Shown in pieces: positions 1-19,454 of a DNA stretch of 32,000 bases (within the stretch, counting starts at the first letter, position 1; each line of letters starts with the position of its first letter). A program made the translations under genes and the position numbers. Under the pieces are notes generated by a model. It was not told where the DNA came from and did not search any database. It worked only from the letters and a program-made list of their open reading frames with translations. Origin of the DNA: Sinorhizobium meliloti (lineage in GTDB: Bacteria; Pseudomonadota; Alphaproteobacteria; Rhizobiales; Rhizobiaceae); the NCBI RefSeq assembly GCF_017876815.1, contig NZ_JAGIOS010000003.1, positions 840,001 through 872,000 on the forward strand. The letters are read 5' to 3'.

Positions 1-166
1 GCCCGTTGGTAATGGCGACCGCTGCGGTCTGCTGAGAGCGCGCGTCGGGAGCCTTCATATTGCTCCAGGCCGGACGTTCCGGCGCGGTTGCCTGCTCGTT
101 CGTGGCCGGAGCAGCATAGGCGCCGCCCGTGACAGCTGGAAAGGCCCCGAAGTCGGTGGTGGACAT
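1..166 (-). CDS. Probable second ABC-transporter permease (DppC/OppC position); only the N-terminal 55 codons are in the window
   Basis: ATG at 166..164 overlaps the TGA (166..168) of the upstream permease in an ATGA junction. The frame stays open to base 1 (MSTTDFGAFPAVTGG...AAVAITNG). The product is inferred from operon position only; no diagnostic motif is visible in this short piece. Confidence 0.4.
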   Translation of the reverse strand, partial: MSTTDFGAFPAVTGGAYAAPATNEQATAPERPAWSNMKAPDARSQQTAAVAITNG

Positions 167-1152
167 CAGCGAGCTCCTATTCGGGGATCGAGCCAGGCGT
201 GGACGAGGTCCACTGCCGCGTTGGCGATGATGACGAGAAGAGAGGACAGGAGCAGGATGCCGAGCAGCACGGTGAAATCCCGGCCCATGACCGCCTCGAA
301 GGCGAGGCGACCTAGACCCGGCCAGCTATAGACGGTTTCCACCACCACCGCGCCGCCGAGCATGCCGCCGATGTGCATTCCAGCCATGGTCGTGATCGGG
401 ATCAGCGCGTTTCGCAGAATGTGCCTCGCTGTCACGCCAAACGGCGTCAGACCCTTGGCATAGGCGGTGCGCACGAAATCATGGTTCTTGACTTCGAGCA
501 TGGCAGCGCGTGTCAGCCGCGCATAGATCGCGACGTAGAAGAGCGCGAGCGAGGTCGCTGGCAGCACCATGTAGCGCGCCTTATCGAGCAGTGCCGGGAA
601 CCCTTTCAACTGCGAGCCGATCGTCGCCGCGCCGCCGCTCGGCAGCCAACCGAGTTTGACCGAGAAGAGCACGATCAGCATCAGGCCGATCCAGAAGCTC
701 GGGATCGAGTAAAAGAGCAGCGAGAAGATTGACAGCAGGCGGTCCGGGATCCGTCCTGCAAAGCTTGCCATTAGCGATCCCAACACGACCCCGAGAAGGA
801 TGGCAATGAAGAGCGCAACCGCCATCAGCGTCAGTGTTCCCGGCAGGCGCTGGACAATCAGGTCGGCAACCGGCATGCCGTAGCGCGGTGAAAATCCAAG
901 ACTGAACTGAGCGAGGTTGCCGAGGTAGGTCGCCAATTGCTCGAGCACCGGACTATCCAGCCCGAAGCGGGCTCTCAGCGCCGCAACACTCTCTTCCGTC
1001 GCCGAACCCGCCTCGCCGGCCAGAACATCCGCCGCGTCACCAGGTGCCAACTGCAAAAGGAAGAAGTTCAGGATCACGATTCCGAGGATCGTCGGAACCG
1101 CCTGCAGAAGTGTTCGTCGAAGCGTTCGCGCAATTCTGATCAGCACCGGCAT
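166..1152 (-). CDS. ABC transporter permease, DppB/OppB/NikB type
   Basis: Lies in ORF 166..1260. The internal ATG at 1152 is preceded by GGAGAGG 8 nt upstream. The N-terminus MPVLIRIARTLRRTLLQAVPTILGIVILNFFLLQLAPGD and the EAA-loop-like RTAYAKGLTPFGVTARHILRNALIP, plus several hydrophobic spans, are typical of this permease family. Confidence 0.85.
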   Translation of the reverse strand: MPVLIRIARTLRRTLLQAVPTILGIVILNFFLLQLAPGDAADVLAGEAGSATEESVAALRARFGLDSPVLEQLATYLGNLAQFSLGFSPRYGMPVADLIVQRLPGTLTLMAVALFIAILLGVVLGSLMASFAGRIPDRLLSIFSLLFYSIPSFWIGLMLIVLFSVKLGWLPSGGAATIGSQLKGFPALLDKARYMVLPATSLALFYVAIYARLTRAAMLEVKNHDFVRTAYAKGLTPFGVTARHILRNALIPITTMAGMHIGGMLGGAVVVETVYSWPGLGRLAFEAVMGRDFTVLLGILLLSSLLVIIANAAVDLVHAWLDPRIGAR

Positions 1153-1449
1153 CGATGTCGCCTCTCCATTTGGCTGTCCGCCAACGGCGAACCTGCACCT
1201 CGGCCTGATCTTTCGCCGCCGAATGATTTTATAGTTGACTAAATACATAGGCTTTGTCAAATGTGTTTTAGCAATTTCACCCTGCGGCTGGCTGATTACC
1301 GGAACACCATTCCAGTGTTTACGGCCAACCCCGAGATTTGAAGAATTTCAATCCTGCATGAGCACAGTTCTCGCAATGGCCGACTAGGAAGACGCGCTCG
1401 AACGAAAAACGCTTCCCGGCACAGCCCATCAGAGACAGCGGAGGATCCC
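1153..1449. promoter_or_regulatory. Divergent control region between the ABC permease genes and the dsz-like operon
   Basis: 297-bp gap between divergent starts. An AT-rich core contains TTGAC-N16-GTCAA (1235..1260), which could supply back-to-back -35 boxes. An inverted repeat TTGAAgaatTTCAA sits at 1338..1351, and GGAGGA at 1440..1445 precedes the GTG start at 1450. No regulator gene for it is seen in the window. Confidence 0.35.
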
Positions 1450-2490
1450 GTGACACGCAAGAATGCCATCTCACACATCTGGTACACGCGCTGCCCCGTG
1501 CCGACACCTATGGGGCTTGCCACCCAGCTTGGCCTCCTCGACACGGCATTTGCCGCCGAGGGCATCAAGCTGAACTCGATCATCGACAGCAAGGATCGCT
1601 CCATCCGGTCTAGCCATTTCGATCACCATCTCGACTATTCGTTTCGCCATGGCGGCAATGTCCCGCCGATTCGCGCCCGCTCGGAAGGCAATCCGACGCG
1701 GCTGGTCGGCATCACCTGGACAGACGAGTTCCAGGCGATCATCACGCTGTCCGAAACCGGGATCAAAACGACACGCGACCTCGTCGGCCGGCGCTTCGGC
1801 ATTGCGCGTCGCCCACCTGGGATCGTCGACTTCATGGCCGCTACCGCTCTGAAGGGCCTCGTTTCCGCTCTCTCGCTCGACGGGCTCGCACCCTCCGACG
1901 TCGAGATCGTCGACATCCCGCTTTCCGAAAGCGTGCTCGACGGCAGAGAGGGGCCGCAGCTCTACGGCCTCAGAAACCGTCAGGCCTATGGCCCCGAAAT
2001 TGCGGCGCTGCTGCGCGGAGAGGTGGATGCCATCTATGTCAAAGGCACGCCCGGCATTGCCGTTGCCAACCTGTTCGCGGCCCACACGGTCGCAGAATTC
2101 GGCTTCCACCCCGACCCAAAAATCCGCATCAATTCCGGCTCCCCACGGGTACTGACCGTGGACGAGCGACTGGCGGAACATCGTCCTGATCTCGTCGCCA
2201 AGCTGATCGCGACTTTGAATCAGGCCGGCGCCTGGGCCGAGGAGCATCCCGACGAGGTGCGCCGCTTCGTTGCCCGCGAAGTCGGCGCTTCAGAAGAGGT
2301 CGTTGCCGCGGCCAACGGCCCCGATCTGCACAAACATCTCGGCATCGGCCTCGAACCGGAACTCGTCGCTGCGATCGGGCACTACAAGGACTTCCTGCAT
2401 GAATGGGGGTTCCTCGAATGCAACTTCGACATCAACGCATGGGTCGACCACCGCCCCTGGGCGGAGCTCGACGTCCGCACTGTCGCCTGA
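1450..2490 (+). CDS. DszB-family (2'-hydroxybiphenyl-2-sulfinate desulfinase-like) protein, paralog 1; periplasmic-binding-protein fold but no signal peptide
   Basis: GTG start 4 nt after GGAGGA. WYTRCPVP, SSHFDHHLDYSFRHGGNVPP, TRLVGIT and LVGRRFGIA line up with my recollection of Rhodococcus DszB (YSNCPVP with catalytic Cys27, VHFTYDQPAYTRFGGEIPP, TRLLGIT, LAGRRIGVS). Similarity continues to the C-terminus. The N-terminus is hydrophilic, so the protein is cytoplasmic. Confidence 0.75.
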   Translation: MTRKNAISHIWYTRCPVPTPMGLATQLGLLDTAFAAEGIKLNSIIDSKDRSIRSSHFDHHLDYSFRHGGNVPPIRARSEGNPTRLVGITWTDEFQAIITLSETGIKTTRDLVGRRFGIARRPPGIVDFMAATALKGLVSALSLDGLAPSDVEIVDIPLSESVLDGREGPQLYGLRNRQAYGPEIAALLRGEVDAIYVKGTPGIAVANLFAAHTVAEFGFHPDPKIRINSGSPRVLTVDERLAEHRPDLVAKLIATLNQAGAWAEEHPDEVRRFVAREVGASEEVVAAANGPDLHKHLGIGLEPELVAAIGHYKDFLHEWGFLECNFDINAWVDHRPWAELDVRTVA

Positions 2491-2503
2491 ACGAGAGCAA
2501 CCG

Positions 2504-3736
2504 ATGACCGATCCCAAACGTTTTGCACCGGTGCTTGCCAAGGCCGAAGAGCTTGGAAAGCGCTTCGCCCTGACAGCACGCCACTACGATGAAACAGGCG
2601 AATTCCCATTTGCCAACTTCGACGCGTTGCATGAGGCGGGACTGCTTGGCCTGGTGACTGCGACGGAGCATGGCGGTCTCGGTGGCGGACTGACGGACGC
2701 GCTCGCCGTCGTTTCGGCAATTGCCCGTGGCGAGCCCTCGACCGCTCTCGTCCTTTCGATGCACTACAACCAGCACTATTCGGTGCGCACCTCAGGCAAA
2801 TGGCCGCCGCACCTTGTCGAGCGTGTCACCAGAGCCAATCGGGAGGGTGTGGCGTTGATCAATGCTGCCCAGGTGGAGCCGCGCGTCGGCTCTCCATCGC
2901 ATGGGTCGTTGCCGGAAACCATTGCTCGGCGCGTTGGCGACCAGTGGCGCATCACCGGCCACAAGACCTACGCGACCGGCATTCCGCTTCTGCGCTGGGT
3001 GGCTGTCCTTGCTGTTACCGACGAGCCGGAGCCGCGACTGGGCTCGTTCCTCGTGCCGACGTCGGCCGACGGCATCCGCGTCGAAAAGACCTGGAACGCA
3101 ACGGGTATGCGGGCAACCAACAGCGACGACCTGATCCTTGATGACGTGGCGATCCCGCTCGAGGATGTTCTCGAAATCGCGCCGGCGAGCGAGGGCCTGA
3201 AACGCGACGAACGCATGGGCGCCTGGTATTTCAGTCTCGTCCCCGCGATCTACGACGGCGCGGCACGCGGCGCACGCGACTGGTTGATCGACTTTACCAC
3301 CTCGCGAGCGCCGGCAAGCCTCGGCGCTCCCCTCTCAACCGTTCCCCGCATCCAGGATGGGCTTGGCGAGATCGAGGTCCTCCTGACGGTCAATCGCCGG
3401 CTTCTGCGCTCGATCGCCGAGGATTTTGACAGCGGACGCGCCTTCGGGGCTGACGCCGCCGCGGTCAAACACACGGTGATCGCCAATGCGATCACGGTGA
3501 CGACGCTTGCCCTTGAGCTTGGCGGCAATCCCGGCATCAGCCGCGACAATCCGCTGGAACGTCACCATCGTGACGCGCTCTCTGGCAAGGCGCACGCGCC
3601 GCAGAACAACCTCATCCGGATGATGCTCGCCAAAGCCGCATTCAGCCGCCACGCCGCAACGCACGCTGTCGCGCTCGATCCGGTGCCCGTCCGCTCTCAC
3701 CAGCAACCCCGTCTTGCCGTCGTCGGCCGCAGCTAG
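2504..3736 (+). CDS. Acyl-CoA-dehydrogenase-fold flavin-dependent monooxygenase (DszC/SfnB-like by context)
   Basis: The track ORF starts at 2270 but that part overlaps the previous gene. The in-frame ATG at 2504 gives MTDPKRFAPVLAKAEELGKRF..., a typical ACAD type-2 N-terminus (HEAGLLGLVTATEHGGLGG). Length is 410 aa, with a 13-nt gap to the upstream gene. Confidence 0.8.
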   Translation: MTDPKRFAPVLAKAEELGKRFALTARHYDETGEFPFANFDALHEAGLLGLVTATEHGGLGGGLTDALAVVSAIARGEPSTALVLSMHYNQHYSVRTSGKWPPHLVERVTRANREGVALINAAQVEPRVGSPSHGSLPETIARRVGDQWRITGHKTYATGIPLLRWVAVLAVTDEPEPRLGSFLVPTSADGIRVEKTWNATGMRATNSDDLILDDVAIPLEDVLEIAPASEGLKRDERMGAWYFSLVPAIYDGAARGARDWLIDFTTSRAPASLGAPLSTVPRIQDGLGEIEVLLTVNRRLLRSIAEDFDSGRAFGADAAAVKHTVIANAITVTTLALELGGNPGISRDNPLERHHRDALSGKAHAPQNNLIRMMLAKAAFSRHAATHAVALDPVPVRSHQQPRLAVVGRS

Positions 3737-3745
3737 GAGTTTTGG

Positions 3746-4780
3746 ATGTCCTCCCTCTCTTCCGTCTGGTACACGCGCTGCCCCGCCCCCAGCCCGCTGT
3801 CGATTGCCCATCAGCTCGGCTGGGTCGACAAACAGTTTCAGAGCGCCGGCGTTGCCGTCCGCTCGATCCGCGACAGCAAGGATCCGTCGGTCCGCCAAAG
3901 CCATTTTACTCATGCGCTGGATTACTCGTTTCGGCAGGGTGGCAACATTCCACCGATCTGGGCGCGGTCTGGCGGGCGCGAGACACGCGTCGTAGGCATC
4001 ACCACCACAGACGAGTTCCAGGCGATCGTAGCACTTCCAGGTTCCGGCATTCTCGCCGCGAGTGACCTGAAAGGCCGCCGCATCGGGGTACCGCGCAAAC
4101 CCAATTCCGAGGTCGTCGATTTCCAGCGCGCCACCGCGTTGAAGGGCATCGTTTCAGCCCTTTCACTCGGCGGCCGCGATCACGGCGATGTCGAACTCGT
4201 CCCTCTCGATACCGACGAGGGCAACCTGATCGAACGCGGCAATGCCGCCTTCCTCGGCTTGAAGCGCCGATATCCCTATGGCGATGAACTGCTGGCTCTG
4301 GCCTCAGGCAAGATCGACGCCTTCTTCGTCAAGGGCGCGGAAGGCATCGTGCTCGCCAACCAGATCGGCGCAGTGGTGGTATCGGAGTTCGGCTTCCATC
4401 CGGATGCGAAGATCCGCATCAACAACGGCACGCCCCGGCCACTGACGGTCGACGCACGCTTCCTCGACGAACATTTCGACCTTGTCGTCGATCTCGTGGC
4501 GACTGTCGCGCGCGTCGGCGAATGGGCGGTTTCCAACCCGGATACAGCAGTCCGGTTCATCGCGAACGAGATCGGCGTCGGCGAGGATGCGGTCTGGGCA
4601 GCCAATGGACCGAACGTCCATCGCCACCTCGCTCTCACATTGGACGACGAACAGATCGCCGCGTTCGATCACTTCAAACGCTTCCTTCTCGATTGGGGCT
4701 TCATTCCCAAAGATTTCGACGTCTTCGGCTGGATCGACGAGAAGCCGTTACAGGCTGCGTTGCGGCGGACAGCCGCATGA
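3746..4780 (+). CDS. DszB-family desulfinase-like protein, paralog 2
   Basis: AGGAG lies 6 nt upstream of the ATG. It has the same motifs as paralog 1 (WYTRCPAP, QSHFTHALDYSFRQGGNIPP, TRVVGIT, LKGRRIGVP) and is roughly half identical to it by eye. No signal peptide. Confidence 0.75.
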   Translation: MSSLSSVWYTRCPAPSPLSIAHQLGWVDKQFQSAGVAVRSIRDSKDPSVRQSHFTHALDYSFRQGGNIPPIWARSGGRETRVVGITTTDEFQAIVALPGSGILAASDLKGRRIGVPRKPNSEVVDFQRATALKGIVSALSLGGRDHGDVELVPLDTDEGNLIERGNAAFLGLKRRYPYGDELLALASGKIDAFFVKGAEGIVLANQIGAVVVSEFGFHPDAKIRINNGTPRPLTVDARFLDEHFDLVVDLVATVARVGEWAVSNPDTAVRFIANEIGVGEDAVWAANGPNVHRHLALTLDDEQIAAFDHFKRFLLDWGFIPKDFDVFGWIDEKPLQAALRRTAA

Positions 4781-5655
4781 GCGAGAGGCCGATCCTCGTT
4801 ACCGGCGCCACGGGCAAGCTCGGCCGACTCGTCGTCGAACGGCTCGTGGCGTTCGGACAACCGGTTCGCGTCTTTACCCGGCGCCCCGAGGCTGCAGGTG
4901 CCCTGTTCGGCAAGACCGTGCAGATCGCCGCCGGCGATTTCGGCGACCGCACTTCGCTCGAAACGGCCGTTCGGGGCGTAGCGCGGCTTCTTCTTCTGTC
5001 GCCGATCAGCGCCAGGCTCGTCACGGATCAGGTCGCTGCTGCCGATGCAGCCGTCGCTGCAAACGTTGCTCGCATCGTCAAGATTTCGGGCTCCGACTGG
5101 ACGATCGAACCGGCGGGCAATTCGATATCCGGTGATGCCCATGCTGCCGTCGAACGGCACTTGGGAAGCCTGCCGATCGAGGCGGTTTCGCTTCGGCCCA
5201 ATGCCTGGATGCAGGTCTCGCTCGCCAACATCATCAGGCAGGTAGTCACGAGTGATCAGGTCGTCGCAGCAAACCTCGACGCTGGTATCGGCTACATCGA
5301 CGCGCGCGACATCGCCGATGTCGCCGTGCAACAGCTCCTTGCTGATCGTCTCGATGGCCGCACGCTCAACCTTACCGGTCCGGACATCGTCTCGTTCCGG
5401 CAGATCGCCTCTCTCATGGCCGCCGCGTTGAAACGGTCGGTGGCAGCACTCGAGGAGCCGCCACAGATTGTTCCCCAAGATGGTGACTTCGAGCATCGCG
5501 CCGTTGCGCAATTCGTAAGGTTGATCGCTGCCGGCCGCGCCGCGACGACGACCGACGTCGTGCGGACGCTGCTTGGCCGCTCGCCCCGTACCGTCGCCGC
5601 CTTCATCTTAGAACAGGTCGCTCCGGCGGCTGCAGTCCCCGAGTATCAGCCATGA
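4777..5655 (+). CDS. NmrA-like / atypical SDR NAD(P)-binding protein
   Basis: ATGA overlap with the upstream stop. MSERPILVTGATGKLGRLVVERL is a Rossmann GxxGxxG motif. The longer track ORF from 4522 overlaps the previous gene and was trimmed. Confidence 0.75.
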   Translation: MSERPILVTGATGKLGRLVVERLVAFGQPVRVFTRRPEAAGALFGKTVQIAAGDFGDRTSLETAVRGVARLLLLSPISARLVTDQVAAADAAVAANVARIVKISGSDWTIEPAGNSISGDAHAAVERHLGSLPIEAVSLRPNAWMQVSLANIIRQVVTSDQVVAANLDAGIGYIDARDIADVAVQQLLADRLDGRTLNLTGPDIVSFRQIASLMAAALKRSVAALEEPPQIVPQDGDFEHRAVAQFVRLIAAGRAATTTDVVRTLLGRSPRTVAAFILEQVAPAAAVPEYQP

Positions 5656-6902
5656 CCATACCCCTCGTCGACGTCGCCATCATCGGTGGAGGACCGGGCG
5701 GTCTCGCCCTGGCACAGGGCTTGAAGAAGAATGGCATTGACACCGCCGTTTTCGAGCGTGACCCGGTTCGTGCAGACTATGTGCAGGGTTTTCGCATGCG
5801 GATCCGGCAACGGGGTATCGACGCGCTCGAGGCGAACCTGCCGGCTCATCTCTTTCAAGCCTTCCTTGATACGCTCGGAATTGCGCCAACGGAAAACCTC
5901 GCCCTCGACGAAACATTCCACCGGCAGGAAAACGCAAGTCAGGGATCAGGCGATCTCGAGGATACGCATATAGAAAAGTCGGTCAGCCGCATCACGCTGC
6001 GCCAGATCCTTCTGTTCGGTCTCGAGGACATTTTCCATACCGGCAAGCGGTTCGAGCGCTACGAGCGGCTGGCCGACGGAACCGTGCTTGCGCATTTCGC
6101 CGACGGCTCGGCCATACGCGCCAACCTTTTGGTCGGCGCTGACGGTGCCGGTTCGGCGGTCCGCCGCCAGCTGTTGCCTCACCTCAAGAGCATCGACACG
6201 GGCGTCCGCCGGCTGGCCGGCAAGATCACCCTCGCCGCGGCGGCCCGACACGGCATCTCGCCGCTTCTTACCGAGTTCAACACCAACATTCGCCCGCGCG
6301 ACGGCCGGGGCCTGATGATCACCAGCCACCGGGTCGATCCTTCCGCCTATGCCCGTCACGATCTCATTGGCAGCGAGGATCCCGACCATGCCGACATCCC
6401 CGGCTTCCACTTCAACAACTCCACTAGCTACACTTGGTGGAACACTGCCTACGACACGGACGAGCTCGGGCCGGATGCGGTACTCGAAACGCTCGACGGA
6501 GCGGCCCTGCTCGAAACGCTCCTTCGGCATATTGGTCACTGGGACGAGCGCATCCTGAAGCTCATTCGCCACAGCGACCCGTCAACGGTCGCCTTCCTCA
6601 AGGTCAAGAGCTCCACGCCCGGCGCGGTGTGGCAAAGCGGTCCGGTGACGCTGCTCGGCGACGCGATTCACGCGATGACCTATTTCCGCGCGCTTGGCGG
6701 CAACACCGCCCTTTACGATACCGGCTTGCTCGTTCGCGAGCTCGTGGCTGCGCGGCGCAATGGCAAGCCGCCGCTCGCCGCAGTGAACGACTACGAAAAC
6801 GCCATGCGCGAGCACGGCTACGAAGCCGTGCGGTCCTCACTTTCAGCCATGCAGCGTAATGTCGGTGCCAATCGGCCGCTGAAGGCCATACCTCACCTCT
6901 AG
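5652..6902 (+). CDS. FAD-dependent aromatic-ring monooxygenase (group A flavoprotein hydroxylase)
   Basis: ATGA overlap with the upstream gene. VAIIGGGPGGLALA is a dinucleotide-binding motif and LLGDAIHAM is a GDAxH motif. Length is 416 aa. Confidence 0.85.
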   Translation: MTIPLVDVAIIGGGPGGLALAQGLKKNGIDTAVFERDPVRADYVQGFRMRIRQRGIDALEANLPAHLFQAFLDTLGIAPTENLALDETFHRQENASQGSGDLEDTHIEKSVSRITLRQILLFGLEDIFHTGKRFERYERLADGTVLAHFADGSAIRANLLVGADGAGSAVRRQLLPHLKSIDTGVRRLAGKITLAAAARHGISPLLTEFNTNIRPRDGRGLMITSHRVDPSAYARHDLIGSEDPDHADIPGFHFNNSTSYTWWNTAYDTDELGPDAVLETLDGAALLETLLRHIGHWDERILKLIRHSDPSTVAFLKVKSSTPGAVWQSGPVTLLGDAIHAMTYFRALGGNTALYDTGLLVRELVAARRNGKPPLAAVNDYENAMREHGYEAVRSSLSAMQRNVGANRPLKAIPHL

Positions 6903-6920
6903 CATCAGGAAAGCTTGATC

Positions 6921-7571
6921 ATGCCCATCGTCGTCTTCGGTGCTTCCGGAAACATCGGTAGCGACATCCGCAAAGAGGCCTTGTCGCGCGGGCACCGCGT
7001 GACAGCCGTGACGCATTCCGCAGACCTGGAGCCTGCCGAACGCCTCACGGCGCTGAAGGCGGATATCGCTGATCCGGAGGAAGTGGCAAGGATCGTCGTC
7101 GGTCACGATGCGGTCATCAGCGCCTACAGCCCCGGTCTGCGCCGCCATTCGGCGGAGGATGCCGCTGTTCTCATCGAGAAAGCGCATGCTTCCCTTTTCG
7201 AAGGCGTCAAGTGCGCCGGCGTCCGCCGCATCCTCATCGTTGGCGGGGTTGGAAGCCTTCAGGCAAGTCCCGGCGTCGACGTCGTCGACAGCGATTTCTA
7301 CCCCGCGGACCACAGGGCCCACACGCTGCGCAACCGCGAGATCCTGCGCAGCCTCAGGCGCGGCGAGCACGACCTTGACTGGACTTATGTCTCCCCGCCT
7401 CTTTCCATCAAGGCGGGCGAGCGAACCGGCCGTTTCAGGCTCGGCGAAGATGCGCTCCTGCGTGACGAAGCAGGAGAGAGCCGCATCTCCGACGCCGATT
7501 TCGCCATAGCCATCGTCGATGAACTCGACAAGGGACAATTCATCCGCCGCCGCTTCACCGCGGCCTATTGA
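6921..7571 (+). CDS. NAD(P)H-binding protein (flavin-reductase / BVR-B-like SDR)
   Basis: ATG at 6921 lies 10 nt after AGGA; the track uses a TTG at 6915. IVVFGASGNIGSDI is a Rossmann motif. The size (~216 aa) is typical of NAD(P)H-binding oxidoreductases. Confidence 0.75.
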   Translation: MPIVVFGASGNIGSDIRKEALSRGHRVTAVTHSADLEPAERLTALKADIADPEEVARIVVGHDAVISAYSPGLRRHSAEDAAVLIEKAHASLFEGVKCAGVRRILIVGGVGSLQASPGVDVVDSDFYPADHRAHTLRNREILRSLRRGEHDLDWTYVSPPLSIKAGERTGRFRLGEDALLRDEAGESRISDADFAIAIVDELDKGQFIRRRFTAAY

Positions 7572-7586
7572 AGGACCTTCAATCGC

Positions 7587-8888
7587 ATGCCCCGCAAGCT
7601 CAATCTGAATGTCGGCATCAACACCACCGGTTATCTGCCGGCAGCGTGGAAGTACCGCAGCGGCAACCGCCACGACATCTACGACCCCGGCTACTACAAG
7701 CGCTTGACCGAACTCGCCCATCGGGGTCTGTTCGACGCGGTGTTTTTTTCCGATCATCCCGCATTGATGACCGATCCGAATAGCCGTCCATTCCATACCA
7801 TTGACCCGCTGATCCTCTGTACGGCGCTCGCAGCGCAGGTGCCCGATATCGGCTTCGTCGCAACGATGTCCTCCACCTACAACTCGCCGTACAACCTGGC
7901 CCGCCGGACCCAGTCGACGGACATCGTTTCGGGCGGGAGGCTGATCATCAATATCGTCTCGTCCTTCAACCCGAACGTGGCGGCCAACTTCGGCTCCGCA
8001 CCGCTGCCTCCGCGCAGCGAGCGCTACGCGAAGGCTTCCGAATTTCTCGACGTCGCCAAGAAGCTTTGGGCAAGCTGGGATCCTGCCCGAGAAGGCCATG
8101 TGCCCGACGAACGTTTCTGGGATGCAGGTAGTGCGCATGCGATCGACCACGAGGGCGATCATTTCACGGTTAAGGGACCGTTGAATGTTCCCCGCGGCCC
8201 GCAAGGCCATCCGGTCATTGCGCAAGCAGGCGCCTCCGAGGGCGGCATCGAACTCGCCGCCCGCCATGGCGAGATCATCTATTGCAACATCCTCTCCCGC
8301 CCAGCCGGCCAGGCCTTCGGCAAGAGGGTCAGGGATCGCGCTGCAGGCCTCGGCCGCGATCCCAAGGGCATCCGGATCGTGCCCGGGGTAGTGGTCATCC
8401 TCGGCGAGACGAAAGAAGAAGCACTGCGTAAACACGAGCTCTTCAGCGGCGCAGGTTCGGAAGACGGCCTGATCGCGCGGTTCATAAAGGAGAACGGCAT
8501 CGATCCGGATGGTTTCAATCCGGATGCAGTGCTGGACGCCGAACGCTTCATCCCGGATCCCAACCGCCTGCAGGCGGTCGGCATGGGGTTGGGGCTTTCC
8601 GATCTTCTGACGCATGAGAAATTGACGGCAAGGCAAGTGGTACGCCGCTCCGAGGGCCATCATCGGCTACTGCTCGGGACCGCAGAAGAGGTAGCTGATG
8701 CGCTCATTGATTTATGGGACGACGGCACCGTCGACGGCTACACGCTTCAGCCGCCAAGAGCACCAGACGATATCGAGGAATTCGTGGACAAAGTAGTCCC
8801 GATCCTCCAGGACCGCGGAGTTTATCGCAGCCGTTACGAGGAGCGCACCGTCCGCGAACGCTACGGTTTGCCGTTTCCAGCAGATTGA
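7587..8888 (+). CDS. LLM-class FMNH2-dependent monooxygenase, NtaA/SnaA/DszA family
   Basis: 433 aa. YAKASEFLDVAKKLWASWD, GPLNVPRGPQGHPVIAQAG and the C-terminal FVDKVVPILQDRGVYRSRYEERTVRERYGL parallel DszA as I recall it ([46 protein letters not shown]). Confidence 0.85.
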   Translation: MPRKLNLNVGINTTGYLPAAWKYRSGNRHDIYDPGYYKRLTELAHRGLFDAVFFSDHPALMTDPNSRPFHTIDPLILCTALAAQVPDIGFVATMSSTYNSPYNLARRTQSTDIVSGGRLIINIVSSFNPNVAANFGSAPLPPRSERYAKASEFLDVAKKLWASWDPAREGHVPDERFWDAGSAHAIDHEGDHFTVKGPLNVPRGPQGHPVIAQAGASEGGIELAARHGEIIYCNILSRPAGQAFGKRVRDRAAGLGRDPKGIRIVPGVVVILGETKEEALRKHELFSGAGSEDGLIARFIKENGIDPDGFNPDAVLDAERFIPDPNRLQAVGMGLGLSDLLTHEKLTARQVVRRSEGHHRLLLGTAEEVADALIDLWDDGTVDGYTLQPPRAPDDIEEFVDKVVPILQDRGVYRSRYEERTVRERYGLPFPAD

Positions 8889-9013
8889 GGATAGGCCTTG
8901 TCGACCCGGCGTCAGAGGGCAAGCGGCTTGTCTTCCCGATTGCGAAAACTGGCTCTCACCACCTTTTCACCGCACATGAAGCAACGCCGCTTTGAAACGC
9001 GTGCTTTCCGCCT

Positions 9014-10444
9014 TCAGATTACCCGCGCTGCAACAGAGTGGATCGAGTTGTTGCCGTAGCCCAGACGGTTCCACTCAGCGTGCTCGGGTTGGGTCCGGCC
9101 CGTCATGTCGGTGGCGCGCACCCGTACGGTGAGTGGCCCCGTCTCCTCAAGTCGCGTGATCAACTCCCACCGTTGCCAGGCAGAGCGTCGTCGTTCGCCA
9201 ACGAGCCGAGCCTCGCGCCACGGGCTGCCGTTCAGGCTTACATCGACCCTGGAGATGTTCCCGGCACCCGACCACGCGACCCCACGGATCGCGGTGTCGC
9301 CGCGCGGCAGGTTCTCCCCCTCTTCAGGCGAAGATATCAACGCTCGCACGTTCATCAGCTTCACCTGCGCGCGCTCATCGTGCCCGTTTCGCACCCAATG
9401 GTACCAGTATTTCTCCGCCTGATAGTATGCCTCGCAGGGTTGGTCGGTAACGACAATCTCGGTCAGCCACTTGACCGACGCTACCGCATACCAACCGGGC
9501 ACGATCAGCCGCAATGGATAGCCATGAGGTGGTGACAGCGTTTCGCCGTTCATCTCATAGGCAAGAAGCGCATCCGTTTCACGAATCTGGTCGAGGCTGA
9601 GGCCGCGTTCGAAACGAACCGGCGCGTCGTGCCCGTCGACGACCCCGCTGTCGGCACCGCGGAAGGTGAGTTCGGTCGCGCCGGCTCGCAGTCCCGCTCG
9701 CTCAAGCACTTCCATCAGGCGAACGCCGGTCCACTCGGCAGTGCTGACGGCGCCCAGTCCCCAGGCTTCGCCGGGCACGGCCGGATCGAACAGGCTACGG
9801 CCGTTGCCAGCGCATTCCAGCGTCACAACCTGGCTTTCGGCATGAAGATTGTGAAGCTCCCTCATGCTCAGTTTCAGTGGTCTTTCGACCAGCCCGCCGA
9901 TCGAAAGCCGGTAGTTGTCACCGCCAAGGTTCGGGATATCGAAGTGGTTCCGCAGGTAAAACCGACCGTTTGGCATCACGGCACCGCCTGCAAGGTCCGG
10001 CACCGAGGTCTCGCCATTCAACGGATTGACGCTGTGAATGAGAAGGCCAGCCTCGACGGCATCCTGGCAGGCGTCTGCGGGGTCGAGCACCTCTGCCGAG
10101 ACGTCCACTGGACGTTCTTCGCAGCCGCCCCTCGAAACCATCGCGGCGCAAGTCATCGCTGCCGTCACTTCGACGTCGCCGGCTTGACGGAGAGGCGCCA
10201 AAAAAGCCTGAAGGATGGCCTCATCCGCTGCTTCGGCAATGAAGAACAGCGAATGTGAGCCCTGTGCGACGGCTTCCCCCTTGATCAGCACACCGTGGCG
10301 AGCAGCGCTCGGCCGGCTCAAATGGTTCAACAGCATCGTGCCCTTGGCTGGATCGCGCGCGGGACAGGTTTCGGGCGAGTGCTGATGGTGCACAATGAAC
10401 AAAGGCAATGGGACCTCCATACTCGGGCAGCAGCGAACCGTCAT
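9014..10444 (-). CDS. Sulfite-oxidase-family molybdopterin oxidoreductase with a ~105-aa N-terminal extra domain
   Basis: VVTLECAGNGRS carries the Mo-ligand Cys motif. HGYPLRLIVPGWYAVASVKWL and a C-terminal Ig-like dimerisation region are also present. The N-terminal part (LFIVHHQHSPETCPARDP...TCAAMVSRGGCEE) is not part of the canonical fold. There is no signal or Tat motif. The start is uncertain: ATG 10444 follows GAAGGA by 9 nt, with ATG 10420 as the alternative. Confidence 0.8.
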   Translation of the reverse strand: MTVRCCPSMEVPLPLFIVHHQHSPETCPARDPAKGTMLLNHLSRPSAARHGVLIKGEAVAQGSHSLFFIAEAADEAILQAFLAPLRQAGDVEVTAAMTCAAMVSRGGCEERPVDVSAEVLDPADACQDAVEAGLLIHSVNPLNGETSVPDLAGGAVMPNGRFYLRNHFDIPNLGGDNYRLSIGGLVERPLKLSMRELHNLHAESQVVTLECAGNGRSLFDPAVPGEAWGLGAVSTAEWTGVRLMEVLERAGLRAGATELTFRGADSGVVDGHDAPVRFERGLSLDQIRETDALLAYEMNGETLSPPHGYPLRLIVPGWYAVASVKWLTEIVVTDQPCEAYYQAEKYWYHWVRNGHDERAQVKLMNVRALISSPEEGENLPRGDTAIRGVAWSGAGNISRVDVSLNGSPWREARLVGERRRSAWQRWELITRLEETGPLTVRVRATDMTGRTQPEHAEWNRLGYGNNSIHSVAARVI

Positions 10445-10744
10445 CAGTGGTGGTCCTTCGGCCACTTCAGCACCCCCGCATGATCAGATAGAACCGCGCG
10501 GCCTCCCGGCCAGGATTAGACGCCGGAATTTTGGGTGAACATGTCTTGTCAGCCGCGCTAGGAATAGGTCGGCGGTTGATGTTGTGAGGCCGAAGGTCCG
10601 CTTTGGACCGGAATCCGAGAGAAATCCCCCGACTTGAACCGAATCGGCACGTAGACACGCAAATAGTGATGGCCGAGATAACCCTGGTCTCGAAGCGGTC
10701 GAATAGAAGCTGTGATGAGCGACCGAATTAAATAAGCGATCTCA

Positions 10745-10793
10745 CTAATTAACGAAAACGGGATTTCATTTATTAACTGGACATGCTAATTAA
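10745..10793 (+). promoter_or_regulatory. AT-rich leader of the Fic gene with direct CTAATTAA repeats
   Basis: CTAATTAA occurs at 10745..10752 and 10786..10793, 41 bp apart, with a related AATTAAAT near 10727. This is the most AT-rich patch of the window and lies just upstream of the preferred Fic start. Confidence 0.3.
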
Positions 10794-10824
10794 AGGCGAC
10801 AAACTTAGCCAAACTGGAAAGTGC

Positions 10825-12003
10825 ATGAGGAACGAGACCGGTGGCCGCCTTGGTCGTTTTGTGGAGACCGCTGTTGGCGGCGAGCGTGTGAAGGCGTTTG
10901 TACCCCCACCTCTTCCTCCCAATCCCCCTCTTGAAATCACCGGCCTCTTAACGCGACTCAGCGCCGCCGAGCGCGCTCTGGGACGACTTGATGGCGTTTC
11001 CATCCTGCTGCCGAACAAGGAGCTGTTCCTGTACATGTATGTACGCAAGGAGGCTGTCCTTTCCTCCCAAATCGAGGGCACTCAGTCGACGCTGTCCGAT
11101 CTCCTTCGCTTCGAGACAGAGGCGATCAGCGGCGAACCTGTCGACGACATCCGCGAAGTCTCGAACTATGTTGACGCCATGATGTTCGGTCTAGAGCGAA
11201 TGCGGCAGTTGCCCCTGTCACTGCGCCTCATCCGGGAAATGCACCAGCGGTTGCTGGATAGCGGTCGCGGCGGCAGAAGGAGCCCTGGCGAATTCCGCAC
11301 CTCACAGAATTGGATCGGCGGCACGCGGCCCGGAAACGCCATGTTCGTGCCTCCTCCAGCGAATGAGGTCATGACTTGCCTCGGTGACTGGGAAAGGTTC
11401 ATTCATGAGGAGACGCCGAGCATTCCGCCGCTGATTAAGGCGGGCCTCATCCATGTCCAGTTTGAAACCATCCATCCTTTCCTAGATGGAAATGGCCGCC
11501 TCGGTCGACTTCTGATCACACTGTTCCTTTGCGCGACCGGCGTGCTTCAACAACCTCTGCTCTATCTCAGCCTTTATTTCAAATCGCGGCGGCCCGACTA
11601 CTACCGGCTTCTACAGGAAGTCCGAGAATATGGAACGTGGGAAGCCTGGCTGGAGTTTTTCCTGGACGGTGTGGCCGAAACAGCAGATCAAGCTTTCGAG
11701 ACAGCCAACCGTATTGCACGACTATTTCACGACGACAGGGAACGGATCGTGAGAGAATCCGAACGTACAGGATCGGTCCTTCAGATCCACGAAATCATGC
11801 GCACGAGCCCCTATCTGACCGCAGCGTCCGCGGCGAAGCGAAGCGGTCTCACAGTGCCGACCGTGAACGCTGCACTGGACCAGCTACAGAGACTCGGCGT
11901 CGTCGAAGAAGCCACCGGACGGCGCCGTGGCCGAGTGTTCGTGTATCGAGCTTATATGGATATCCTCAGTGACGGCGCGGGCACTAACGCTACTCGTTCA
12001 TAA
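10825..12003 (+). CDS. Fic family protein (class II, with N-terminal inhibitory motif and C-terminal winged-helix-like region)
   Basis: HPFLDGNGRLGRLL matches the Fic motif HxFx(D/E)GNGRxxR. SSQIEGT matches the inhibitory (S/T)xxxE(G/N) motif. The start is set at MRNETGGRLGRFVETAVGGERVKAFVPPPLPP, the usual family N-terminus; the track ORF begins at 10783. Confidence 0.85.
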   Translation: MRNETGGRLGRFVETAVGGERVKAFVPPPLPPNPPLEITGLLTRLSAAERALGRLDGVSILLPNKELFLYMYVRKEAVLSSQIEGTQSTLSDLLRFETEAISGEPVDDIREVSNYVDAMMFGLERMRQLPLSLRLIREMHQRLLDSGRGGRRSPGEFRTSQNWIGGTRPGNAMFVPPPANEVMTCLGDWERFIHEETPSIPPLIKAGLIHVQFETIHPFLDGNGRLGRLLITLFLCATGVLQQPLLYLSLYFKSRRPDYYRLLQEVREYGTWEAWLEFFLDGVAETADQAFETANRIARLFHDDRERIVRESERTGSVLQIHEIMRTSPYLTAASAAKRSGLTVPTVNAALDQLQRLGVVEEATGRRRGRVFVYRAYMDILSDGAGTNATRS

Positions 12004-12131: not shown

Positions 12132-13025
12132 TCAAAGGTCATCGAGTCTGAGCCGCATGGCTAGGAGGTCAACGAACGCGCGCACCTTCGCGGGCGGACG
12201 TGTACTTTCTTGCCAGAGGGCATGAATCGGCACTGGCTTGGGCTCAAACTCCTGCAATACGATTTCTACCTGCCCGGCATCCACAAGATGCCTGATCTGC
12301 CACAGAGGAGAATATCCCAACCCTAGGCCACTTCTTACAGCAGAATAAATCGCTGCCATTGCATTGGAGCGAAACGAACCCCGGACTCCAACCATCCGCC
12401 TCTTTCCATCAATTTGGAAGGCCCACTGCCCCGGTCTGTTGCCGATTGTTCTGACGATGCAGGCGTGCTGGCGCAATTCCGCAGGATGTTCTGGCCGGCC
12501 ATTCCGAGCAAAGTAGGAGGGTGCTCCGAACACCACCCGCCGTAGCGCACCCAATCTTTTACTCTGCAGGTTGGAATCAGGCAGGTCGGCAATGCGGACC
12601 ACTACATCTATCCCTTCGCTTGCAAGGTCGACGAACGCATCTGTCAAACTTAGATCGACCTCGGCCTGCGGATAGCTTTCAATGTATTCCGCGACGATCG
12701 GAACTAGAAAGTCTGGCCCGAACAGCATTGGTGCACCCACGCGCAGAATTCCGGATGGTCCAGTCCTGCGACCAGCCGCCTCAAGTTGGGCCTCTCTGAT
12801 TTCCAACACCGCTGGCTTCACCCGCCGATAAAAGGCCTGACCAGCCTCGCTGAGCGCAGAATGTCGTGTGGTGCGGTGAACAAGCTGAAGTCCAACGTCA
12901 ACTTCAAGTGATGTAAGGGAGCGGCTCACCGCTTGCAGCGAGCGATTGAGACGAGTCGCAGCCCGGGTAAGGCTACCACTTTCCGCGATATGGATGAATG
13001 CTTCAAGGTCTTCGAGGCGACTCAT
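12132..13025 (-). CDS. LysR-family transcriptional regulator
   Basis: N-terminal HTH LEAFIHIAESGSLTRAATRLNRSLQAVSRSLTSLE and a typical ~300-aa LTTR length. Start is ATG 13025, or 13037. It is divergent from an NmrA-like gene. Confidence 0.85.
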   Translation of the reverse strand: MSRLEDLEAFIHIAESGSLTRAATRLNRSLQAVSRSLTSLEVDVGLQLVHRTTRHSALSEAGQAFYRRVKPAVLEIREAQLEAAGRRTGPSGILRVGAPMLFGPDFLVPIVAEYIESYPQAEVDLSLTDAFVDLASEGIDVVVRIADLPDSNLQSKRLGALRRVVFGAPSYFARNGRPEHPAELRQHACIVRTIGNRPGQWAFQIDGKRRMVGVRGSFRSNAMAAIYSAVRSGLGLGYSPLWQIRHLVDAGQVEIVLQEFEPKPVPIHALWQESTRPPAKVRAFVDLLAMRLRLDDL

Positions 13026-13031
13026 ATTATC

Positions 13032-13044
13032 TCGCATATTGCGA
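13032..13044. promoter_or_regulatory. LTTR box (T-N11-A palindrome)
   Basis: TCGCAtatTGCGA is a perfect T-N11-A dyad in the LysR/NmrA divergent intergenic region. Confidence 0.5.
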
Positions 13045-13131
13045 TTCTATCTCCATCGCGACGTCAATTGTTACGTCTTCCACAGGAAATTAAAGTGCTC
13101 CCGCGTCATGAAATTTGCAAAGGACACGCTT

Positions 13132-14034
13132 ATGGTATTGAACCAACCAAAGATCCTCGTTGTTGGAGCCACCGGCAAATTCGCGCGCTGGGTTATTCCC
13201 GAACTGATGCGCCGCGACGCTGTCGTCCATGCGCTCGTGCGCAACGATGCACGGGCAGCCGTCGCCCGCTCGCTGGGTGTGGCCGAGGTTTTCATTGGAG
13301 ACCTCCGCAATACGGACAGTCTTGCCGAGGCAACGCGAGGCATGGACGGTGTCTTCTATATTGGCCCCGCGTTCACGCCTGACGAAGCAGCAATGGGGAT
13401 TGCCATCGTCGAGGCCGCAGAGCGAAACGGTGTGAAGAAGTTCGCCTTCTCGTCGGTGATCCAGCCTACGAACACGCGCCTGAAGAACCATGCGAGCAAA
13501 ATCCCGGTCGAGGAGGCGCTTTACTCGTCACGGCTCGAATATACAATCCTGCAGCCGGCGAACTTCATGCAGAACATCGGGATCGCGTGGCCATCGATCA
13601 TTCTGCATGGTCGCTTCGGAGAGCCATTCCCGAAAGACATCAAGATCGCTCGCGTTGATTACCGCGACGTCGCCGAGGTCGCAGCCATTGCACTTACGGA
13701 GGACAAGCTGGCATTTGCCACGCTTGAGCTGGCGGCAGGTATGTTCAGCCGTAATGACGTTGTTGCGGCTATCTCGGCAGAGCTCGGACGCCCGATAGAA
13801 GCGTTTGAGCCCAGCTTCAGCGAGTGGGTGCAGAGCGCCCGTCTACCTTACAGTGAGCAGCAGATGCACATGCTCTCAAAGATCCACGAGCACTACAGAA
13901 ACTACGGACTTGGGGGAAATAGCCTTTCGTTGACCGCTGCGTTGGGCCGCGAACCTCGTTCGCTGCGTGATTATATTCGGGAGTTGGCACGACAGAACGA
14001 TCCGTTAACGCCCCATCTCGCTAAGGATTCGTAG
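13132..14034 (+). CDS. NmrA-family NAD(P)-binding protein
   Basis: ATG 13132 lies 7 nt after AAGGA, with 13108 as an alternative. MVLNQPKILVVGATGKFARWVIPEL is a Rossmann motif. The track ORF start at 12946 overlaps the LysR gene. Confidence 0.8.
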   Translation: MVLNQPKILVVGATGKFARWVIPELMRRDAVVHALVRNDARAAVARSLGVAEVFIGDLRNTDSLAEATRGMDGVFYIGPAFTPDEAAMGIAIVEAAERNGVKKFAFSSVIQPTNTRLKNHASKIPVEEALYSSRLEYTILQPANFMQNIGIAWPSIILHGRFGEPFPKDIKIARVDYRDVAEVAAIALTEDKLAFATLELAAGMFSRNDVVAAISAELGRPIEAFEPSFSEWVQSARLPYSEQQMHMLSKIHEHYRNYGLGGNSLSLTAALGREPRSLRDYIRELARQNDPLTPHLAKDS

Positions 14035-14300: not shown

Positions 14301-14842
14301 AGCCATTTACCTTCGGCTCACGCCTCCGATATAGCTAGACTTTCCTCCCCCACGGCGGCGTGGACTCCGATCCCGTTTCACAGGCAGGCGTGAGAGGGAG
14401 TCCCGAGGGCTGCGCCCAAACATGGGCGACGATCCGGTGAAAATCATTGCTGGCGGTGCGGCCAGCAATGACGACCGAAAACTGGAGAGACTCTGTGGCC
14501 CCCAATTCCGCAAAGACGTCGGAAATGAAGAAGCAAGGACGGCAAAAAACTGACGATAAATAGCGCCCTTCCCTACCCCCCCGCCCTTCGACCGAAACCT
14601 GCACCTGGATCGATTACAGTTGGTGATATGCTGCCCATGCGCTATCGGATTCTCTCCAGCACCGGCGGGTTAATTCCGCCGCCCGCGCTCGGCGCGATTC
14701 TCCCCTCACTCCAGATACTCAAATATTCAAATTAAAGTACTTTCACTTCATACTTACATTTGCAGAACATCCAGTGAGAATTGGGAGTTATATTATCCCC
14801 TTCGGATATCATAATTTCTTCTTCACGCTGAGGAGCCCTATT

Positions 14843-19381: not shown

Positions 19382-19454
19382 ATTTGCTCCTGCATGTTCG
19401 CCGCGAGGGCTGCGTTCGATGGAGCGATATTGGCTGGTTACCGAATTGCCAACA

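Follow-up and report, generated by a model that had tools for sequence, protein, structure and literature searches.

The seven plus-strand genes g1 to g7, at positions 1450-8888 of a 32,000-nucleotide stretch of Sinorhizobium meliloti DNA (hereafter the window), include two, g1 and g3, whose products belong to the family of DszB, the desulfinase of the Rhodococcus 4S desulfurization pathway. Both products retain the catalytic constellation of DszB, and we propose, with a probability of about 60%, that the locus encodes a sulfur-scavenging, 4S-like pathway endowed with genuine desulfinases. The likeness of g1 and g3 to DszB had already been recorded in databases: their counterparts sma2087 and sma2093 go by the name "Desulfurization enzyme" in UniProt and in the S. 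meliloti re-annotation, and "desulfurase" appears in some NCBI records; the current RefSeq name has since regressed to "ABC transporter substrate-binding protein". We add here that the catalytic constellation is kept across a family of about 700 clusters (123-sequence alignment), that the core of the locus comes with a Dpp-type importer, an aldo-keto reductase and a second protein of the acyl-CoA dehydrogenase (ACAD) fold, that g6 is a flavin reductase candidate, and that the locus is tied to asfAB co-induction and to the loss of a sulfate transporter.

Two DszB-family proteins in a seven-gene operon

The pSymA-type megaplasmids of S. meliloti SM11 (NC_017327) and RU11/001 match the window at 100% identity, which confirms the rhizobial background that a first-pass annotation had read from the sequence alone. 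Pairwise identity to pSymA of strain 1021 amounts to 99.2-99.6% over the segments compared, and g1-g7 correspond there to sma2087-sma2101. The first-pass annotation had described seven packed plus-strand genes with gaps of at most 18 nucleotides and two ATGA overlaps; the listing of open reading frames (ORFs) and inspection of the junctions matched this in every detail, with intergenic gaps of 13, 9, -4, -4, 18 and 15 nucleotides, both -4 junctions (g3/g4 and g4/g5) being ATGA overlaps. The domain order that it gave was reproduced by Pfam and NCBIfam scans: NMT1/SsuA-like, ACAD N/M/C, NMT1/SsuA-like, NmrA, FAD_binding_3, NAD_binding_10 and Bac_luciferase/TIGR03860. The genes are as follows.

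g1 (sma2087), 1450-2490, plus strand: GTG start, 346 residues; putative sulfinate desulfinase 1, a cytoplasmic DszB-family protein
g2 (sma2089 + sma2091 in strain 1021), 2504-3736, plus strand: 410 residues; ACAD-fold flavoprotein, putative reduced-flavin-dependent S-oxygenase and functional analog of DszC/BdsB
g3 (sma2093), 3746-4780, plus strand: 344 residues; second DszB-family paralog, a lineage-specific accessory
g4 (sma2095), 4777-5655, plus strand: 292 residues; NmrA-like NAD(P)-binding protein
g5 (sma2097), 5652-6902, plus strand: 416 residues; group-A FAD-dependent monooxygenase of the aromatic-hydroxylase type
g6 (sma2099), 6921-7571, plus strand: 216 residues, alternative TTG start at 6915; NAD_binding_10 protein, candidate NAD(P)H:flavin reductase
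g7 (sma2101), 7587-8888, plus strand: 433 residues; NtaA/DmoA-subfamily luciferase-like FMNH2-dependent monooxygenase

On the basis of RNA-seq, sma2087-sma2101 was called an eight-gene operon, divergent from a five-gene sma2085-sma2077 operon (diCenzo et al. 2018, PMC5940162). The eight ORFs of strain 1021 answer to seven genes in the window because g2 is frameshifted after residue 114 in strain 1021/2011, which splits it into sma2089 and sma2091 (NC_003037, our locus L090, 14417-15645); the gene is intact in the window and in strain AK83. The seven genes thus form one co-transcribed operon, as the first-pass annotation had expected, and both the published operon calling and the co-induction in the same data set support it (PMC5940162).

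The two DszB-like proteins are 51% identical to each other (BLASTP, E=2e-125). Their ORFs open at the first possible start codon, 9 (g1) and 6 (g3) residues ahead of the first beta-strand, and no in-frame start lies upstream, so that there is no room in either ORF for an N-terminal signal peptide or lipobox; the absence of a signal peptide noted previously is thereby explained by the ORF starts themselves. The catalytic residues of Rhodococcus DszB, also named previously, are indeed in place: the motifs WYTRCPVP and WYTRCPAP, SHF, and YSFRHGG and YSFRQGG align with C27, H60 and R70, and the C27/H60/R70/G73 set of DszB corresponds to C15/H56/R66/G69 in g1 and to C12/H53/R63/G66 in g3. The Cys, His, Arg and Gly equivalents are invariant in 119 of 119 g1 orthologs and in all 24-25 g3 orthologs. 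Exhaustive searching of 1.84 billion cluster representatives gave 729 family clusters with E<=1e-3, of which 196 reached E<=1e-30, and we aligned 120 full-length representatives (mostly representatives of 50%-identity clusters) with g1, g3 and DszB; among these 123 sequences, the Cys is kept in 103, the His in 103, the Arg in 119 and two Gly in 119 and 112 (Gly73 equivalent), so that each residue of the constellation persists in about 84-97%.

The names in RefSeq and JGI, both of which call g1 and g3 "ABC transporter substrate-binding protein", embody a different explanation, namely that these proteins are non-catalytic and serve as substrate-binding proteins of an ABC transporter or as cytoplasmic ligand carriers or sensors. 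Matches to Pfam NMT1 and to SsuA_fam at E ~1e-20 and the type II binding-protein fold agree with it. The SsuA_fam scores (TIGR01728; 73.9 and 72.9 bits) nevertheless lie far under the cut-off of 163.5, and phmmer against the PDB returned DszB (2DE2) as the sole strong match, with E=2.5e-16 for g1 and 1.7e-12 for g3 against 0.037 for SsuA. A profile built from 88 diverse family members matched DszB 2DE2 over its full length (E=8e-56, 193 bits) and SsuA 2X26 in its central part alone (E=2e-13, 53 bits), while 4,5-dihydroxyphthalate decarboxylase (9JP7) scored 0.016 and THI5-type proteins ~0.007. Using the confident AlphaFold (AF2) model of g1 (predicted local distance difference test, pLDDT, 94.1), Foldseek placed three DszB entries on top (E ~1e-21 to 4e-23, TM-score 0.76) and TauA/SsuA lower (E ~1e-16, TM-score 0.61-0.68), the fold being that of type II binding proteins. 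The alignment and structure comparisons suggested in the first-pass annotation therefore both come out on the side of DszB, and neither a better score to transport binding proteins nor a loss of the triad was found for g1 or g3. In addition, SsuA gives no alignment over the N-terminal stretch that bears the Cys, His and Arg. The neighboring transporter, of the Dpp/Opp type, comes with a family-5 binding protein of its own, and neither g1 nor g3 adjoins a NitT/TauT permease or ATPase as a cognate partner. With the DszB catalytic Cys invariant among orthologs and export signals excluded, we consider a non-catalytic role very unlikely. Profile scores also led us to reject g1 and g3 as periplasmic binding proteins, THI5-type proteins or decarboxylases.

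Orthology to DszB was tested as well, with a negative outcome: g1 and g3 are just 24-26% identical to DszB, they form a small clade of their own with representative P0121 in a neighbor-joining tree in which DszB is peripheral, and none of the 150 listed family representatives exceeds 34% identity to DszB. By sequence, then, g1 and g3 are DszB-family members with the catalytic constellation, and not DszB orthologs.

A conserved core and its flavin-dependent partners

To define the unit in which g1 occurs, 80 loci with g1 relatives from GTDB species genomes and two annotated plasmid loci were scanned with all proteins of the locus. While g1 was present in 82/82 loci, the two Dpp-type permeases were found in 79/82 and 78/82, the two Dpp-type ATPases in 78/82 and 78/82, the family-5 binding protein in 77/82 and the aldo-keto reductase in 75/82; g2 followed g1 directly in 73/82, and the second ACAD-fold protein occurred in 61/82. 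A g7-type luciferase-like monooxygenase (LLM) was encoded at 47/82 loci and an SsuD-sized LLM at 43/82, and g3, g4, g5 and g6 were found at 24/82, 23/82, 23/82 and 20/82, respectively. The conserved core is thus g1-g2 together with a divergent Dpp-type ABC importer, the aldo-keto reductase and the second ACAD-fold protein, and g3-g6 are a lineage-specific add-on module. Consequently, the seven genes that the first-pass annotation had taken as the unit do not constitute it; the functional unit consists of the importer, flavin-dependent oxygenases and the DszB-like enzyme. In the AK83 annotation, the importer operon continues beyond the window start with a second permease, two ATPases and the aldo-keto reductase, followed by the family-5 binding protein and the second ACAD-fold protein. 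No hint of a ligand came from the family-5 binding protein (sma2075), which in the PDB best matches generic peptide, heme, autoinducer-2 and nickel binders.

The seven-gene form is restricted to Sinorhizobium/Ensifer, Neorhizobium, some Rhizobium, Devosia, Ferranicluibacter and Chelatococcus (L024). Most Rhizobium, Mesorhizobium and Agrobacterium loci read binding protein - (LLM) - g1 - g2, opposite the transporter; Rhizobium sp. T136 has family-5 binding protein - LLM - g1 - ACAD, and in Sphingobium (L025) ABC - aldo-keto reductase - g5 - g7 - g1 lie on a single strand. Distant family members, whose contexts were read from partial flanking ORFs on contigs of mostly ~2 kb, show LLM - DszB-like - ACAD, that is, the dszABC order with overlapping genes, and elsewhere ABC ATPase - DszB-like - LLM or Dpp ATPase - aldo-keto reductase - DszB-like.

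Two side observations concern the same genes. In a Devosia metagenome-assembled genome (L018, 3-2900), the strand opposite to the main locus and near it bears a second g3-like gene (45%) with a g4-like NmrA gene (54%) close by, which suggests that a DszB-like and an NmrA-like gene make up a recurring two-gene module; in loci L016, L020 and L021, a g4-like gene stands alone near 820. Furthermore, the gene for the distant family member P0122 (46% identical to g1; L086, GCA_003590945.1, 8001-10243) overlaps a JmjC/cupin-type oxygenase gene, in the vicinity of a rhodanese gene, TonB-ExbBD genes and a Dpp-type permease gene whose product is 53% identical to that of the window, and thus represents a different set of enzymatic partners for the DszB family.

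The partners g2 and g7 had been described as an ACAD-fold monooxygenase and a DszA/NtaA-type LLM; the ACAD fold of g2 and the TIGR03860 membership of g7 are indeed seen, but the two are not orthologs of DszC and DszA. g2 lacks the catalytic Glu of the dehydrogenases, the YEGT of Bcd (5OL2_C) aligning with HAPQ in g2, and its closest structure is 5Z8T, "Flavin-containing monooxygenase" by its deposition title (E=2.9e-62, 34% identity, TM-score 0.85-0.89 to the g2 model); a literature search found no paper describing PDB entries 5GJ7 or 5Z8T. MsuC, TdsC and the ACAD-fold 3-sulfinopropionyl-CoA desulfinase are farther from g2 than 5Z8T is. The match to MsuC, an ACAD-fold methanesulfinate monooxygenase, has E=2e-16, the SfnB model scores 103 bits, one g2 homolog bears the name YdbM, and NF043015, the equivalog model for DszC, stays at 40.7 bits where its cut-off is 850. 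Judged from these comparisons, g2 is an oxygenase-type relative of the ACAD family and not a DszC ortholog, and we regard it as a putative S-oxygenase. g7 exceeds the cut-off of TIGR03860, the NtaA/DmoA subfamily that also contains DszA (381 bits; cut-off, 279.7). Its PDB matches are headed by the ethylenediaminetetraacetate (EDTA) monooxygenase EmoA (4.3e-93, 316 bits), followed by Bacillus subtilis YtnJ (YtnJ/MoxC; 7.5e-64), with the DszA-type 5TLC at 3.4e-56 (194 bits).

The FAD hydroxylase and the two Rossmann-fold proteins had been regarded as additions to the classical set, which holds for g4 and g5 as accessories; g6, in turn, may be an analog of DszD. g5 matches FAD_binding_3 at 5.9e-21, and its best PDB match is 4HB9 (6e-44), followed by TetX and then by urate, salicylate and 6-hydroxynicotinate hydroxylases; its characterized relatives hydroxylate activated aromatic or heteroaromatic rings. 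g4 matches Pfam NmrA at 1.3e-16, is translationally coupled to g3 and g5 via ATGA and is a putative reductase acting on the carbon skeleton. g6 matches NAD_binding_10 at 1.7e-24 and is unrelated to the DszD-type FMN reductases; its PDB relatives include 4R01 (6e-25) and 3H2S, titled "putative NADH-flavin reductase". Since LLM or ACAD-type oxygenases need a flavin reductase and solved relatives of g6 are so titled, g6 is a reasonable candidate and may serve both g2 and g7.

Regulation, substrate and proposed pathway

Published RNA-seq of strains lacking pSymB, compared with the wild type (PMC5940162 supplement), gives log2 fold changes of 7.30 for sma2087, 7.19 for sma2089, 6.84 for sma2091, 6.96 for sma2093, 6.48 for sma2095, 6.71 for sma2097, 3.38 for sma2099 and 5.49 for sma2101. 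The values are 6.6-7.2 for the sma2085-sma2077 transporter/aldo-keto reductase operon, 4.30 for the binding protein gene sma2075, 3.94 for sma2073, which encodes the second ACAD-fold protein, and 3.27 for the convergent gene SMa2103. The locus is hence induced about 10- to 150-fold without the pSymB region, alongside asfAB (PMC5940162). Reporter fusions showed that the sma2085 and sma2087 promoters were up specifically in a deletion of pSymB nt 635,940-869,642, and the chromosomal smc02344-smc02350 operon, which holds asfA and asfB, was up in this deletion and in one other; in the pSymB-less strains, the log2 fold change was ~3.8 for asfA/asfB and +1.07 for cysK1 (PMC5940162). asfA and asfB are homologs of arylsulfonate genes of Pseudomonas that are induced by sulfate starvation.

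The deleted pSymB region carries a complete cysP-cysT-cysW-cysA set at about nt 769,047-772,928 (L093, 33108-36989), each subunit of which passes its NCBIfam cut-off, and the binding protein shares 83.6% identity with CysP1 of pSymA. The pSymA sulfate transporter upstream of the window (L001, 1-1788) comprises cysP1 and cysA1 only, which have no permease genes between them. A loss of sulfate uptake would be a parsimonious explanation for the induction of the operon in the deletion strain. Together with the co-induction of asfAB and SMa2103, it gives indirect evidence that sulfur limitation switches the operon on, which we consider probable. Alternatively, given that cysP1/cysA1 and cysDNH hardly respond, the induction may reflect the loss of a regulator or repressor encoded on pSymB. 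A literature search found no sulfur-limitation transcriptome of S. meliloti.

The intergenic region between the two divergent operons contains a candidate control element, and the features that flank the operon are as follows.

sma2085-type permease, 166-1152, minus strand: first gene of the divergent Dpp/Opp-type ABC importer operon
28-bp element GTTGACTAAATACATAGGCTTTGTCAAA, 1234-1261: TTGAC-N15-GTCAA inverted repeat in the sma2085/sma2087 divergent promoter region
SMa2103, 9014-10408, minus strand: convergent sulfite-oxidase-family molybdoenzyme (Oxidored_molyb and Mo-co_dimer, with N-terminal DUF3303 at 5e-6)

The 28-bp element is the sole strongly conserved block among 24 aligned orthologous intergenic regions and hardly varies between Sinorhizobium, Devosia and Chelatococcus. 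The window has this single copy, as has the pSymA locus L001, with 0 copies expected by chance, and a relaxed form occurs once in each of the 24 loci. We consider it a candidate shared operator and/or a pair of back-to-back -35 boxes. A second, weaker conserved palindrome, GGAAC-N4-TTCC, lies at about 1303-1318, ~45 nucleotides downstream. Scans of 1100-10800 for sigma-70 promoters and intrinsic terminators gave nothing above shuffled sequences, the g7/SMa2103 intergenic fold (z = 0.78) showed no evident terminator, and no riboswitch or other Rfam RNA family was detected in the window or the leader, the sole match being a chance snoRNA (E = 0.07).

SMa2103 has no signal or Tat peptide, unlike SorT, the periplasmic enzyme of S. 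meliloti, and is therefore predicted to be cytoplasmic, where it is a possible sink for released sulfite. It was listed among three additional sulfite-oxidizing enzymes, with taurine induction reported as data not shown (PMC3511301). SMa2103-type sulfite oxidase genes occur at 2/82 loci, the linkage to the operon being confined to S. meliloti and S. chiapasense, and sulfate-binding protein genes likewise occur at 2/82. The adjoining sulfate transporter genes and sulfite oxidase gene, at first taken as strong evidence for sulfur metabolism, were downgraded in view of these counts and of the lack of cysP1/cysA1 co-induction. Beyond SMa2103, at 10825-12003, 12135-14034, 14774-16393 and 17346-24824, lie genes that appear unrelated to the operon. 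They encode a Fic/DOC family protein, a LysR regulator (divergent from an NmrA/HSCARG-like gene), an RTX calcium-binding repeat protein, an MFS_3 transporter, Amidohydro_3, isochorismatase-family and glyoxalase/dioxygenase-fold proteins and a second LysR regulator; sma2105 and sma2107 (Fic and LysR) are not co-induced with the operon (PMC5940162).

Two of the above results, the resemblance of g7 to EmoA and the scarcity of sulfur-gene neighbors, could instead point to a catabolic role outside sulfur metabolism, in which the importer would take up an N- or C-substituted compound (e.g., a natural aminopolycarboxylate, an opine, a chelator or a substituted aromatic acid), an EmoA/NtaA-like LLM would cut C-N bonds and the DszB-like proteins would carry out another ipso-substitution, e.g., a decarboxylation. 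EmoA is the closest solved relative of g7, the binding-protein fold also includes 4,5-dihydroxyphthalate decarboxylase, and cysP1/cysA1 are not co-induced. A precedent is the EDTA and nitrilotriacetate (NTA) system of Chelativorans BNC1, in which an EmoA-type LLM is found together with a Dpp-like transporter that depends on a binding protein. The family profile, however, favors DszB over the decarboxylase by a wide distance in E-value (8e-56 and 0.016), and the sulfinate-binding His, Arg and Gly are conserved along with the Cys. Moreover, g7 is missing from 35/82 loci, where SsuD-sized LLMs often replace it, whereas g1 is found in all and the transporter in 77-79/82, and the operon is co-induced with asfAB and SMa2103 once the region containing the sulfate transporter is lost. 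On this balance, we judge a non-sulfur role to be unlikely.

Within sulfur metabolism, the physiological data bear on the nature of the substrate. Curing of pSymA and pSymB together, and not of one replicon, abolished the use of L-Met, D-Met, N-acetyl-Met and Met sulfoxide as sulfur sources (PMC4207669), which points to a redundant system on pSymA (Data set S4) and leaves a methionine-derived aliphatic substrate compatible with the Biolog data, although the locus itself is not tied to the phenotype. The locus might accordingly scavenge aliphatic sulfur (methionine, S-alkyl-cysteine derivatives or sulfur peptides) in a manner closer to Pseudomonas Sfn/Msu or Bacillus subtilis CmoIJO/YtnJ than to the aromatic 4S route: the Dpp-type importer would take up an amino acid or peptide, the ACAD-fold protein and the LLM would oxidize the thioether, and the DszB-like proteins would act on a non-aromatic sulfinate. 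The importer is indeed of the peptide type, and the matches of g7 to YtnJ and of g2 to MsuC and the SfnB model, as well as the name YdbM of a g2 homolog, fit such a scheme. Those model matches, of SfnB, MsuC and YtnJ type, all fall far under the equivalog cut-offs, however. In the accepted DszB mechanism, Cys27 protonates an sp2 ipso carbon (PMC6100217); such chemistry would not carry over easily to alkyl sulfinates, and g5 is an enzyme of the aromatic-hydroxylase type. We therefore hold an aliphatic substrate to be improbable. By analogy, the chemistry of DszB and the group-A FAD hydroxylase would suggest an aromatic or heteroaromatic one.

Several observations weigh against a 4S-like function of the locus. 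First, the low identity of g1 and g3 to DszB and their separate clade mean that their chemistry could differ, the desulfinase role of this clade being a prediction from fold and residues. Second, the partners lean elsewhere: g2 favors the SfnB, acryloyl-CoA reductase and 3-sulfinopropanoyl-CoA desulfinase models over DszC, and g7 is nearest to an EDTA monooxygenase and not to DszA. Third, the regulatory and genomic signature of sulfur metabolism is incomplete, since pSymA cysP1/cysA1 are not induced (log2 fold change ~0.5) and chromosomal cysDNH barely respond, with cysD and cysH up slightly (PMC5940162), and since sulfate transporter and sulfite oxidase genes neighbor the operon in so few genomes. 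Fourth, in Biolog PM4 plates, curing of pSymA alone cost just N-acetyl-L-cysteine, which supported poor growth even of the wild type (PMC4207669 Data set S4), and sulfolane, sulfanilate and methionine sulfone do not serve the wild type as sulfur sources (PMC4207669). Finally, g2 is frameshifted in strain 1021; the Biolog-tested strain carries this frameshifted g2, so that phenotypes of 1021-derived strains may under-report the function of the locus.

Taking these points together, we favor a sulfur-scavenging pathway that can be laid out in six steps; our own evidence underlies step 3 and a portion of step 5, and the other steps are inferred. (i) The divergent Dpp-type ABC transporter would import an organosulfur compound, as its near-universal synteny suggests. 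(ii) From their family membership, g2 and g7 would oxidize the sulfur and open one C-S bond, with reduced flavin probably supplied by g6. (iii) g1 and g3, whose fold, cytoplasmic location and residues are established above, would cleave the resulting sulfinate to sulfite through the Cys-His-Arg site. (iv) The sulfite would be assimilated or, in excess, oxidized by the co-induced cytoplasmic SMa2103. (v) Synteny defines the core as g1-g2, the transporter, the aldo-keto reductase and the second ACAD-fold protein, and the g3-g6 extension probably broadens the substrate range or processes an aromatic product, g4 and g5 possibly tailoring product or substrate. (vi) Expression is probably turned on by sulfur limitation. 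A more specific version, which we put forward tentatively, is that the g1/g3 branch, a large proteobacterial part of the DszB family (729 clusters at 50% identity), frees sulfite from a natural, actively imported, polar aryl- or vinyl-sulfinate or from a thioether/sulfone precursor in soil and rhizosphere, which would make this the role of 4S chemistry in nature, the paralogs serving two sulfinates; the locus could then also be the genetic basis of the benzothiophene desulfurization observed in Sinorhizobium.

Significance and comparison with known systems

DszB catalyzes the slow step that limits biodesulfurization, and to our knowledge nearly all that has been learned about it comes from a few enzymes of actinobacteria and the Bacillus group that attack thiophenes of fuels. 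Should the rhizobial proteins prove active as desulfinases, they would represent a large pool of divergent catalysts that share the catalytic residues, would hint at the compounds on which 4S-type chemistry acts in nature and at its ecological role in the sulfur cycling of soil and rhizosphere, and would correct a systematic misannotation, thousands of such proteins being named "ABC transporter substrate-binding protein". The system is tractable owing to the genetics of S. meliloti, the existing sma2085 and sma2087 reporter fusions and a strong induction condition.

The SsuA/TauA/NrtA binding proteins share with g1 and g3 the type II fold (Foldseek TM-score 0.61-0.68) and the Pfam NMT1 match. 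They differ in that g1 and g3 have no signal peptide, remain below the SsuA_fam cut-off, carry a triad region that does not align and have no adjoining NitT/TauT permease or ATPase. The pseudomonad ssu, asfRABC, sfnFG-sfnB and msuEDC systems resemble the locus in their LLMs, ACAD-fold oxygenases (SfnB and MsuC), flavin reductases and dedicated ABC importers, and the S. meliloti operon is co-induced with its own asfA-asfB operon. In those systems, however, the sulfinate is oxidized to a sulfonate by MsuC and an LLM frees the sulfite, none has a DszB-type desulfinase, and their transporters are of the NitT/TauT and not of the Dpp type.

The bdsABC operon of Gordonia terrae C-6 is closer, with a desulfinase, an ACAD-type FMNH2 monooxygenase and an LLM; by gene order, its start is matched by g1-g2, and ABC transporter genes lie on its flanks and are induced together with it (PMC3868597). 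The LLM of the bds operon is an SsuD-type alkanesulfonate monooxygenase, whereas g7 is of the NtaA/DmoA type; Rhizobium versions of the locus carry an SsuD-sized LLM adjoining g1. According to work cited in PMC3868597, Sinorhizobium sp. KT55 desulfurizes benzothiophene via the sulfone and the sultine to o-hydroxystyrene. Given this precedent and the matching bdsABC order, the g1-g2 core is a plausible genetic basis for a KT55-type phenotype. A proteomics paper on DszABCD in Chelatococcus (PMC4839641) was rejected as evidence on the locus, as its peptides were matched to actinobacterial Dsz sequences.

The 4S system of Rhodococcus IGTS8 (dszABC and dszD; DszB, PDB 2DE2/2DE3) remains the principal reference. 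Like g1 and g3, DszB is a cytoplasmic protein of the binding-protein fold with the Cys27/His60/Arg70/Gly73 constellation; its activity is that of a 2'-hydroxybiphenyl-2-sulfinate desulfinase, EC 3.13.1.3. Both systems combine it in one operon with an ACAD-fold oxygenase-type flavoprotein and an NtaA/DmoA-subfamily LLM, reliance on a separate flavin reductase is expected in both, and some distant relatives of g1 keep the LLM - DszB-like - ACAD order with overlapping genes. The two systems differ in sequence, g1 and g3 standing at 24-26% identity in a separate clade and g2 and g7 not being orthologs of DszC and DszA, and also in content, the S. meliloti locus having two desulfinase paralogs together with NmrA-like, group-A FAD hydroxylase and NAD_binding_10 genes. 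Finally, unlike the IGTS8 genes, the S. meliloti locus is tightly linked to a Dpp-type importer, an aldo-keto reductase and a second ACAD-fold protein, which suggests that its substrate is a polar, actively imported natural compound and not a hydrophobic fuel thiophene.

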